Positions 4,030 to 10,275 of a stretch of 25,275 bases of DNA are shown piece after piece. Below the pieces are notes generated by a model, which saw only the letters and a list, made by a program, of their open reading frames with translations, ran no database searches and was not told the DNA's origin. Source of the stretch: an archaeon. GTDB taxonomy: Archaea; Thermoproteota; Nitrososphaeria_A; Caldarchaeales; Wolframiiraptoraceae. The stretch lies in contig JAPDJZ010000160.1 of assembly GCA_029258815.1 (NCBI GenBank), forward strand, positions 1 through 25,275. The letters are read 5' to 3'. Numbering within the stretch: position 1 is the first letter of the stretch; each line of letters begins with the position of its first letter. The position numbers and the translations under genes are program-made.

Positions 4030-4363
4030 GGGGCGGCGGCAGGTAGGGCCGGGGAGCTAGCCCTTCCCTGTAACCCGAAATGGGCTACACGCGGGGGCCA
4101 GTAACCCGGAGGGGCGCATGCGAGAGGGGAAGACCCGGCGGCGAAGCGCGGGGAGAGGAAGGTGCGCCCGCGCAGAGCCTCGTAGGAGGCCGACCCGCTC
4201 GTAGGGGTGGGCGACGGCCTCCGCGCACGCCGAACCGCGTTAGGCCCGGGAGGGAGCGGCGCTAAGGCGTGGCGGGGCTGCTGCGCGGATCCGTGCTGGA
4301 TCCTCGGCCGCTGCTTCGGGCTTCCCTTCCTCCTTGCCACCCTCCGGGGGCTGCCGCCGCCCC
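4030..4363 (+). ncRNA. Archaeal signal recognition particle (7S) RNA
   Basis: 13-bp terminal helix GGGGCGGCGGCAG/CTGCCGCCGCCCC; Alu motif CCCTGTAACCCGAAA; helix 6 with GTAG loop; helix 8 GAAC..AGGCCC-GGGA-GGGAGCGGC; long helix 5 can be paired by hand; T-rich tract follows. Confidence 0.93.
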
Positions 4364-9070: not shown

Positions 9071-9271
9071 GGAACCGGAGCACCCCTCTAAAGCAGCCGC
9101 GAGCGAAACCCATCCAGAATCACCGAGATATTAGGATGAAGGCGGAGGGCTTTCCGAGCCAGGGGGAGCCGGAAACGCCCCCTCCACGACCAAGGCTACT
9201 TCAAGCCAGATTTCAAGCACGGAAGAAAAATAAGTTTCATAGGAGCAAGCACCCCCGCGGTCTAAAAACTC

Positions 9272-9300
9272 GAAAAAGCTTATATGACCATGAAAGTCAT
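9272..9300 (+). promoter_or_regulatory. Strong BRE/TATA followed by palindrome ATGAC-N7-GTCAT
   Basis: GAAAAAGCTTATAT at 9272-9285; inverted repeat 9284-9288/9296-9300. Confidence 0.5.
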
Positions 9301-9309
9301 CTTATGATT

Positions 9310-9412
9310 GGGCTGGTGGGGCTTCCCCGGGGGCTCCGTCGGTCCACCACTCATCACGGATCAGATGCGCTCGGAGATTCTTCACGGCCCTCCTTTAGGG
9401 CCTCACCAGCCC
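9310..9412 (-). ncRNA. Box C/D guide sRNA enclosed in a canonical bulge-helix-bulge motif (predicted 72-nt circular product 9323-9394)
   Basis: Minus strand: GGGCTGGTGAGG-CCCT-AAA-GGAGGGC-c-GTGAAGA(C)-14nt-CTGA(D')-TCC-GTGATGA(C')-12nt-CGGA(D)-GCCCCC-GGGG-AAG-CCCCACCAGCCC. Confidence 0.8.
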
Positions 9413-9500
9413 TGATCTAAACTAAAATCGGAGCGTATTCTTGCTTTTTCAAAATTTCGACTCAAAAATTTTAGGTAATTTTATTTAGCCGTTTTAGAGC

Positions 9501-10150: not shown

Positions 10151-10275
10151 TCCCGCGGGGGTGATTTGAACACCCGACCATCCGGTTTCTGTCCGCCTGG
10201 TAGGCTGAGGCCCGCGCCTCCCCTTTCCCGGGCGCGGCTACAGCCGGACGCTCTACCAGGCTGAGCTACCGCGGG
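10151..10275 (-). tRNA. tRNA-Tyr(GTA) with 51-nt intron at 37/38 (10187-10237)
   Basis: CCCGCGG/CCGCGGG-A acceptor (C1:G72, A73), TCCGG-CTGTAG|A-CCGGA anticodon arm, GGGTG-TTCAAAT-CACCC T arm; central splice helix CTGT/ACAG. Confidence 0.95.

Follow-up and report, generated by a model that had tools for sequence, protein, structure and literature searches.

The locus at positions 9412-9310 on the minus strand of the window, i.e. the complete analysed stretch of 25,275 nucleotides, raises the question of which molecule is addressed by the small RNA encoded there and what this RNA could do to it. What this strand specifies is a guide RNA of the box C/D type, enclosed by a bulge-helix-bulge (BHB) frame. 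The host tRNA-Ala is the probable target of its D guide, a reading to which a probability of about 0.6 is assigned on the basis of sequence comparisons. The host assembly (G000) is a MAG of 1.14 Mb in 176 contigs with a completeness of 70 %.

The C/D sRNA itself occupies positions 9385-9335 on the minus strand, with the boxes C GUGAAGA, D' CUGA, C' GUGAUGA and D CGGA, and is enclosed by the BHB frame at 9412-9310. Read along the minus strand, the frame starts with the 5' strand of the outer helix, GGGCUGGUGAGG (9401-9412), which pairs with the 3' strand CCCCACCAGCCC (9310-9321) with a single A.C mismatch and has 91.7 % of its cells paired across nine copies. It is followed by the 5' strand of a central 4-bp helix, CCCU (9400-9397), the 3-nt 5' bulge AAA (9396-9394) and the 5' strand of the K-turn closing stem, GGAGGGCC (9386-9393), which pairs with GCCCCC (9334-9329). 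On the 3' side, this stem strand is followed by the GGGG strand of the central helix (9328-9325) and the 3' bulge AAG (9324-9322). The order of helix, bulge, helix, bulge and helix expected for a BHB is hereby found as 12-bp outer helix, AAG, CCCU/GGGG, AAA and inner stem. The CCCU/GGGG pairing is present in 9/9 copies, the K-turn closing stem shows only one-sided, G.U-compatible changes among the copies, and the 3' bulge is 2 nt long in the metagenome copy L109 and in the genome G030.

Within this frame, the box C variant GUGAAGA (9379-9385) was identified by direct reading and by a below-threshold alignment to box C of the Rfam archaeal C/D models. The 14-nt D' guide AUCUCCGAGCGCAU (9365-9378) precedes box D' CUGA (9361-9364), and the 3-nt loop UCC together with box C' (9351-9360, with C' at 9357-9351) forms a K-loop with D'. 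The 12-nt D guide GUGGUGGACCGA (9339-9350), whose complement UCGGUCCACCAC is the plus strand at 9339-9350, lies between box C' and the box D variant CGGA (9338-9335). Boxes D' and D were both recognised by direct reading and by the alignment of the copies. The terminal boxes C and D retain the tandem G.A pairs and the G-C pair of a C/D K-turn, and the position normally occupied by U.U is changed to A.G, with U5 of box C replaced by A and facing U2 of box D replaced by G. The closing stem (element positions 23-26/79-82) precedes a 3-nt bulge, as in a C/D K-turn. The K-loop has canonical boxes and reads CUGA-UCC-GUGAUGA; box C' is invariant in nine copies, and box D' is CUGA in all of them except L110, where it is UUGA. 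With exactly 12 nt, the D spacer has the usual length, while the D' spacer, with 14 nt here and 13 nt in copies of the type of L114, is at the long end of the usual range.

A permissive Rfam scan yielded about 10 sub-threshold matches to archaeal C/D families, all on the minus strand between 9333 and 9389. No curated Rfam C/D family was reached, as the best match (sR1) scored 21.6 bits with an E-value of 9e-4 against a gathering threshold of 45. The sRNA resembles the archaeal C/D class and is outside every described Rfam family. Two other interpretations of the locus were rejected. An ORF on the plus strand (9136-9420, 94 AA) was discarded as a real feature since it matches no Pfam family and its frame is not maintained among the copies owing to a 1-nt indel. 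The plus strand was likewise discarded as a split, permuted or relic tRNA-Ala because the T loop and D arm are absent and only two short end-like stretches are present. No tRNA model covers or flanks 9310-9412; the nearest tRNA gene, for tRNA-Tyr, is about 740 nt away, and the downstream gene, encoding an MFS transporter, is about 240 nt away.

Some properties of the frame and of its surroundings are observations in their own right. If the C/D core is taken out and the flanks 9310-9321 and 9395-9412 are joined, a stem of 12 bp would result, topped by the 7-nt loop CCCUAAG and followed by a purine; these dimensions are those of a tRNA acceptor/T-arm minihelix. The outer stem has exactly one A.C mismatch in each of the nine copies, located at position 9, 10 or 11. 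The window also contains an archaeal SRP RNA at 4037-4356 (plus strand; 103.6 bits, Rfam gathering score 96.5). The tRNA-Tyr(GUA) gene at 10151-10275 on the minus strand, which carries a 54-nt intron, was found by the Rfam tRNA model and missed by ARAGORN. Introns are common in the tRNA genes of this assembly, some of them at non-canonical sites such as the T arm of tRNA-Ala(CGC).

The proteins of a C/D RNP are encoded in the host assembly, namely fibrillarin (PF01269, contig C18), Nop5 (Nop, PF01798, C38) and an L7Ae-family protein (PF01248, C2), as are the splicing endonuclease EndA (PF01974, C44) and the ligase RtcB (PF01139, C104). A regex scan of the assembly detected five C/D sRNAs, including the one described here, and none in the reversed control. 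The other four served as a positive control and match targets of 9-12 bp in same-genus rRNA or host tRNA, one of them being a Um34-type target, U34 of tRNA-Lys. This recovery of ordinary targets indicates that the method works, and the low number of guides keeps the multiple-testing burden small. In the sRNA at C65:4076-4124 (minus strand), whose D' box is also CGGA, both guides match tRNA-Lys(UUU) at C8:7416-7504, with N+5 of the D guide at the wobble base U34 and N+5 of the D' guide in the D loop.

For the D guide, the original prediction had proposed complementarity to the acceptor and CCA end of tRNA-Ala, with U70 opposite N+5. This is borne out by the two tRNA-Ala genes found in the host, one for the UGC anticodon (C4:16524-16596) and one for CGC with an intron in the T arm (C8:15639-15746). 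Both end in CCCGGTCCA and thus in the CGGUCCA on which the proposal depended, followed by a genome-encoded CCA. The window itself contains only genes for tRNA-Arg, tRNA-Ser and the intron-bearing tRNA-Tyr, in agreement with the earlier statement that it holds no tRNA-Ala gene. With both host genes, the D guide forms 10 contiguous Watson-Crick pairs from C67 to A76. The duplex covers N+2 to N+11 of the guide and stops at the last base of the tRNA, and U70 is paired with the A at 9343, the fifth guide base counted upstream from box D. The pair G3:U70 is known from textbooks as the determinant of the 'second genetic code' for AlaRS. A complementarity of at least 9 bp to rRNA or tRNA with a Watson-Crick pair at N+5 was found for the D guide and not for the D' guide of the window.

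The match was compared with chance by using composition-matched shuffles, of which 10/1000 (Watson-Crick only) or 19/1000 (G.U allowed) equalled it across 33 host tRNAs, and the second-ranked host tRNA has a score of 6.5. Apart from its copy in the sRNA, the 10-mer is present at three places in the assembly. Two of these occurrences are the tRNA-Ala 3' ends; the third, on contig C86, is antisense to an ORF and was rejected as a target. The calculated energy of the guide duplex at 37 °C is -20.4 kcal/mol compared to -14.9 kcal/mol for the 7-bp acceptor stem (bimolecular), and the order stays unchanged when calculated for 70 and 85 °C. Between the four genera g1-g4, the conservation of tRNA-Ala amounts to at least 97 %, which is too uniform for covariation with the guide to show. 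The tRNA-Ala genes of G002, a genome of another genus that also has the sRNA, do not encode CCA, and full pairing of the D guide there would therefore need a CCA-added tRNA. Among the points against tRNA-Ala as the target, the site is buried in a G+C-rich helix and the 3' end of a tRNA is normally aminoacylated. A T-box-like sensing of tRNA-Ala, also considered in the earlier proposal, is not supported. The suggested UGGU:ACCA contact is the distal part of the ordinary 10-bp guide duplex, with UGGU located inside the 12-nt guide between boxes C' and D, and neither a specifier/anticodon contact nor a terminator-antiterminator switch for the downstream gene is present.

A BLAST search of 35 genomes of the family revealed one full homologue of the element, located in G002 and 89 % identical, whereas the neighbouring protein genes of the two genomes are 66-71 % identical. 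The boxes and the D guide (12/12) are the same in this homologue, and the D' guide differs at 6/14 positions. Exact-word scans of public collections added eight further contigs with the element, of which seven are distinct sequences. G002 and 8/8 metagenome copies share the D guide unchanged; as the metagenome copies were retrieved by a pattern containing the D guide, their identity is not independent evidence.

The D' guides are unconstrained by this search pattern and occur in five variants among the copies. In L114, L113/L115 and L109, the D' guide reads ACUACUGGCCCAU or GCUACUGGCCCAU before CUGA and pairs over 10 bp (one G.U) with G1-G10 of tRNA-Ala, which starts with GGGCCGGUAG. Here, N+5 falls on G3, the partner of U70, and a match in this register was obtained for 10/300,000 shuffles. 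With tRNA-Val genes, which have the same start, these guides pair over 11 bases. One of the contigs, L115, belongs to the genus of G002, to which it is 85 % identical over 5.4 kb, and the tRNA-Ala genes of G002 also start with GGGCCGGUAG. The D' guides of L110 and of the G002 type correspond to the L114 type with one inserted base, which splits the match into 4+6 bp, and the D' guide of the window has diverged further. One acceptor stem would thus be contacted on both of its strands by the sRNA family, one guide per strand, and each partner of the 3:70 pair would lie at a catalytic position. An internal stem is no explanation for this two-strand pattern, since pairing between the guides themselves is weak. 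Moreover, the matches overrun the 7-bp stem, by U8-G10 on the 5' side and by A73-A76 on the 3' side.

The D' guide of the window is probably degenerate or orphan and inactive. Its best match among the host tRNAs lies in the intron of tRNA-Ile(GAU) and is at chance level (59/1000 shuffles). This intron and the D arm of tRNA-Ala, where 11/14 positions match without being contiguous, were rejected as targets due to chance-level matching or wrong geometry. The suggestion that this guide targets G26 through tRNA positions 24-31 had to be dropped, as no host tRNA contains GCGCUCGG there.

The distribution of the sRNA is sporadic. In the order, the sRNA with this D guide was found in 2/76 genomes despite the near-constancy of tRNA-Ala there, which counts against the tRNA-Ala reading. 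In the genus of G002 (g2), it is located inside a segment of about 390 bp which G002 and L115 carry and which is cleanly missing from G001 and G003 (loci L115:4305-4706, L161 at G002:C33:7400-8200, L159 and L160). In its carriers, the segment lies between the copies of an imperfect 13-nt direct repeat, ACRGATTARATTC, and is MITE-like, with 9-bp inverted repeats, ACCTAGATA/TATCTAGGT, close to the ends. Its presence or absence among these close relatives indicates that the sRNA is dispensable.

In G030, a genome of the same genus as the host, the orthologous syntenic locus (L034:1-104, G030:C25:1-104) has the outer helix of the window, and its central helix, CCUG/CAGG, differs by two compensatory pairs. 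The C/D RNA in this frame has the boxes C AUGAUGA, D' CGGA, C' GUGAAGA and D CCGA, with guides unrelated to those of the window. The variant pair GUGAAGA and CGGA recurs here in a permuted position, as C'/D'. The BHB frame acts as a kind of cassette holder. Together, the sporadic presence, the segment in g2 and the exchanged guides in G030 characterise the sRNA as accessory and replaceable. The D guide of G030 pairs over 10 bp with G10-C19 of the host tRNA-Val genes, which were used as a stand-in for those of G030. The contig G030:C25 starts at the first G of the element, and the last C of the element is where the metagenome contig L121 stops; these two independent assembly breaks at the element borders hint at strain-level variation or repetition there.

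A conserved trailer was observed directly after tRNA-Ala genes, both in the host (G000:C4:16597-16632 and G000:C8:15605-15638) and in G003, G023, G024, G034, G048, G050, G055 and G063. It consists of a T-arm-like hairpin with a stem of 4-6 bp, compensatory stem changes and a loop of about YUCAAAA. After the hairpin comes CCGGCCC, with an A behind it in the two host copies that were read further. CCGGCCC, which has C at position 70, offers the 5' acceptor strand of the tRNA a second partner with Watson-Crick pairs throughout. The trailer could occupy the 5' strand in the precursor, so that the true 3' strand stays unpaired. It occurs in three families of the order and is uncorrelated with the sRNA. 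A link between the two was rejected, as the trailer is also common in genomes that lack the sRNA.

Based on these components, a sequence of events can be proposed. Release of the 72-nt core from the BHB, and its circularisation, would probably be the work of the tRNA splicing endonuclease and RtcB, with the predicted circular junction between the A at 9323 and the A at 9394. Assembled with L7Ae, Nop5 and fibrillarin, the D guide would base-pair with the 3' acceptor strand, the discriminator and the CCA of tRNA-Ala (C67-A76), for which the single-stranded ACCA end is a possible toehold that may nucleate pairing and give access to the helix in vivo. With U70 at N+5, 2'-O-methylation of its ribose would be the parsimonious mechanism and Um70 the likely product; in carriers of the L114 type, Gm3 would be a likely additional product. 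The ancestral particle may have addressed both riboses of the 3:70 pair, with the D' guide of the window having drifted since. In topological terms, both tRNA termini would be beside the C'/D' K-loop and G10 and C67 beside the C/D K-turn, which makes simultaneous binding of both strands conceivable.

Regarding the role of such a modification, it might stabilise the weak G.U step or protect its backbone in a thermophile, or alternatively tune the recognition by AlaRS. According to a model derived from an archaeal AlaRS-tRNA structure, the 2'-OH of U70 is hydrogen-bonded to the AlaRS backbone, and atomic mutagenesis cited there shows its importance (PMC6055181). As this hydroxyl is an AlaRS contact, Um70 might be harmful; the contact at the same time raises the interest in the site. 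Neither Nm3 nor Nm70 is found in mapped archaeal tRNAs, in which only a tentative methylated U72 is reported for Sulfolobus tRNA-Gln (PMC7668247). The most far-reaching version of the proposal is that a dispensable, possibly mobile and endonuclease-processed circular C/D RNP pulls the two acceptor strands of tRNA-Ala apart, holds each of them on one guide and methylates the riboses of both G3 and U70, thereby tuning or gating alanine charging or protecting the G.U step from cleavage at high temperature. In this complete form, it is considered speculative and unlikely.

The selection of tRNA-Ala as the target has to be weighed against rRNA, which is the commonest target class with 56 % of the Pyrobaculum guides (PMC7994747). 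Since the host 16S and 23S rRNAs were not found in the 70 % complete assembly, 16S and 23S rRNAs from 19 genomes of the family were used as stand-ins. In same-genus rRNAs, the D guide reaches at most eight contiguous pairs. The premise that no perfect rRNA target exists therefore stands insofar as nothing equal or better was found in the same genus, and does not extend to the host's own rRNAs, which are absent from the assembly. It is quite unlikely that the D guide targets this unassembled 23S rRNA, in the helix at about 1307 or in the hairpin at about 323-341, with the tRNA-Ala match being coincidental. An identical 10-mer is indeed present in other genera near position 1307, where the sequence reads CCGGUCCACCAA, namely in genomes of the genus g5 and in G007. 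In the two genera holding the sRNA, g1 and g2, the site reads CCGGGUCACC or CCGGGCCGCU with a mismatch at N+5 (4/4 covering g1 genomes and the single g2 genome with a 23S rRNA), while the g5 genomes and G007 with the 10-mer lack the sRNA. For this reason, the site was rejected. The hairpin would offer adjacent partial sites for both guides in G028, with eight contiguous pairs for the D guide adjoining a D' site at 322-333 (10 Watson-Crick pairs and one G.U of 12), and dual guides on neighbouring rRNA sites are typical. It was rejected as well since the 8 bp are found in G028 only and all other genomes have C instead of U at N+5. Furthermore, neither rRNA site is constant between genomes, in contrast to the D guide, which G000 and G002 share unchanged. 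An rRNA target also leaves the D' guides matching the tRNA 5' end unexplained.

Two further explanations keep the rRNA aside. The D guide could be an orphan, with its match to tRNA-Ala, and likewise the 5'-end match of the sister copies, being due to chance or a relic that no longer functions; the RNA itself would then have another role or none. For Pyrobaculum, 28 % of the guides are orphans, and the p-value of about 0.01-0.02 for the single-guide match is not overwhelming. The sporadic distribution and the replaceable locus, with unrelated guides in the frame of G030, also fit this explanation. It is nevertheless judged unlikely, as two independent guides match complementary strands of one helix with N+5 on both partners of one pair, the D guide is conserved across genera, and only about 0.2 chance matches are expected for the 10 guides of the regex set. 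Alternatively, the sRNA could bind the 3' end of tRNA-Ala as an antisense chaperone, sequestering agent or charging regulator that holds the CCA or unzips the stem, with methylation beside the point. In its favour, ACCA is paired over its full length, guides for both strands would force the acceptor helix open, AlaRS contacts the 2'-OH of U70, and chaperone roles of C/D RNAs are discussed in the literature. This is regarded as rather unlikely in view of the exact geometry of a catalytic guide (12-nt spacer, duplex from N+2 to N+11, Watson-Crick pair at N+5), the presence of fibrillarin, and the lack of a regulated gene or switch structure nearby.

Under the preferred reading of a C/D guide directed at tRNA-Ala, the sRNA can be compared to known systems. 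A literature search revealed no described guide aimed at the acceptor stem and CCA end or at the G3:U70 pair. A BHB-framed C/D guide with such a target would differ from the known tRNA guides, although the working principle of the guide is already known. A parallel in processing is the C/D RNA that the tRNA-Trp intron contains in Euryarchaeota (Haloferax, Pyrococcus); as cited in PMC7994747, it is likewise released from a BHB by the tRNA splicing machinery, can circularise and has both guides on one tRNA. The present sRNA differs from it in being free-standing without tRNA exons around it, in acting in trans on another tRNA, and in its putative target, which is the acceptor stem and CCA end (U70, ancestrally G3) instead of C34/U39.

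In targeting, it resembles the Pyrobaculum families of Lui et al. 2018 (PMC6009581). According to the main text of that study, about one third of the C/D families target tRNAs at 23 positions, and around 80 % of these tRNA-targeting sRNAs use one guide while the other is orphan. They are likewise trans-acting with one tRNA guide and one orphan guide and belong to a fast-evolving repertoire with some MITE-like members. Unlike for the present sRNA, the acceptor stem does not occur in that main text, and these sRNAs lack a BHB frame. The circular C/D sRNAs of Pyrococcus, Sulfolobus, Nanoarchaeum and Methanopyrus are also small guide RNAs of thermophilic archaea (PMC3695527); compared to these, the present sRNA has a BHB and its circularity is predicted. 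The permuted SRP RNA of Thermoproteus, as cited in PMC7994747, is another non-tRNA RNA processed by EndA and RtcB through a BHB, yet it belongs to a different RNA class that has no guide function.

If the D guide does target tRNA-Ala, C/D RNPs would be able to invade a closed acceptor helix via its ACCA tail, and an identity element of aminoacylation would be subject to RNA-guided modification. The effects of Um70 and Gm3 on charging, editing and thermostability would be testable with synthetic tRNA. For this family of sRNAs, it would mean that a tRNA-directed guide is linked in its maturation to the tRNA splicing machinery.
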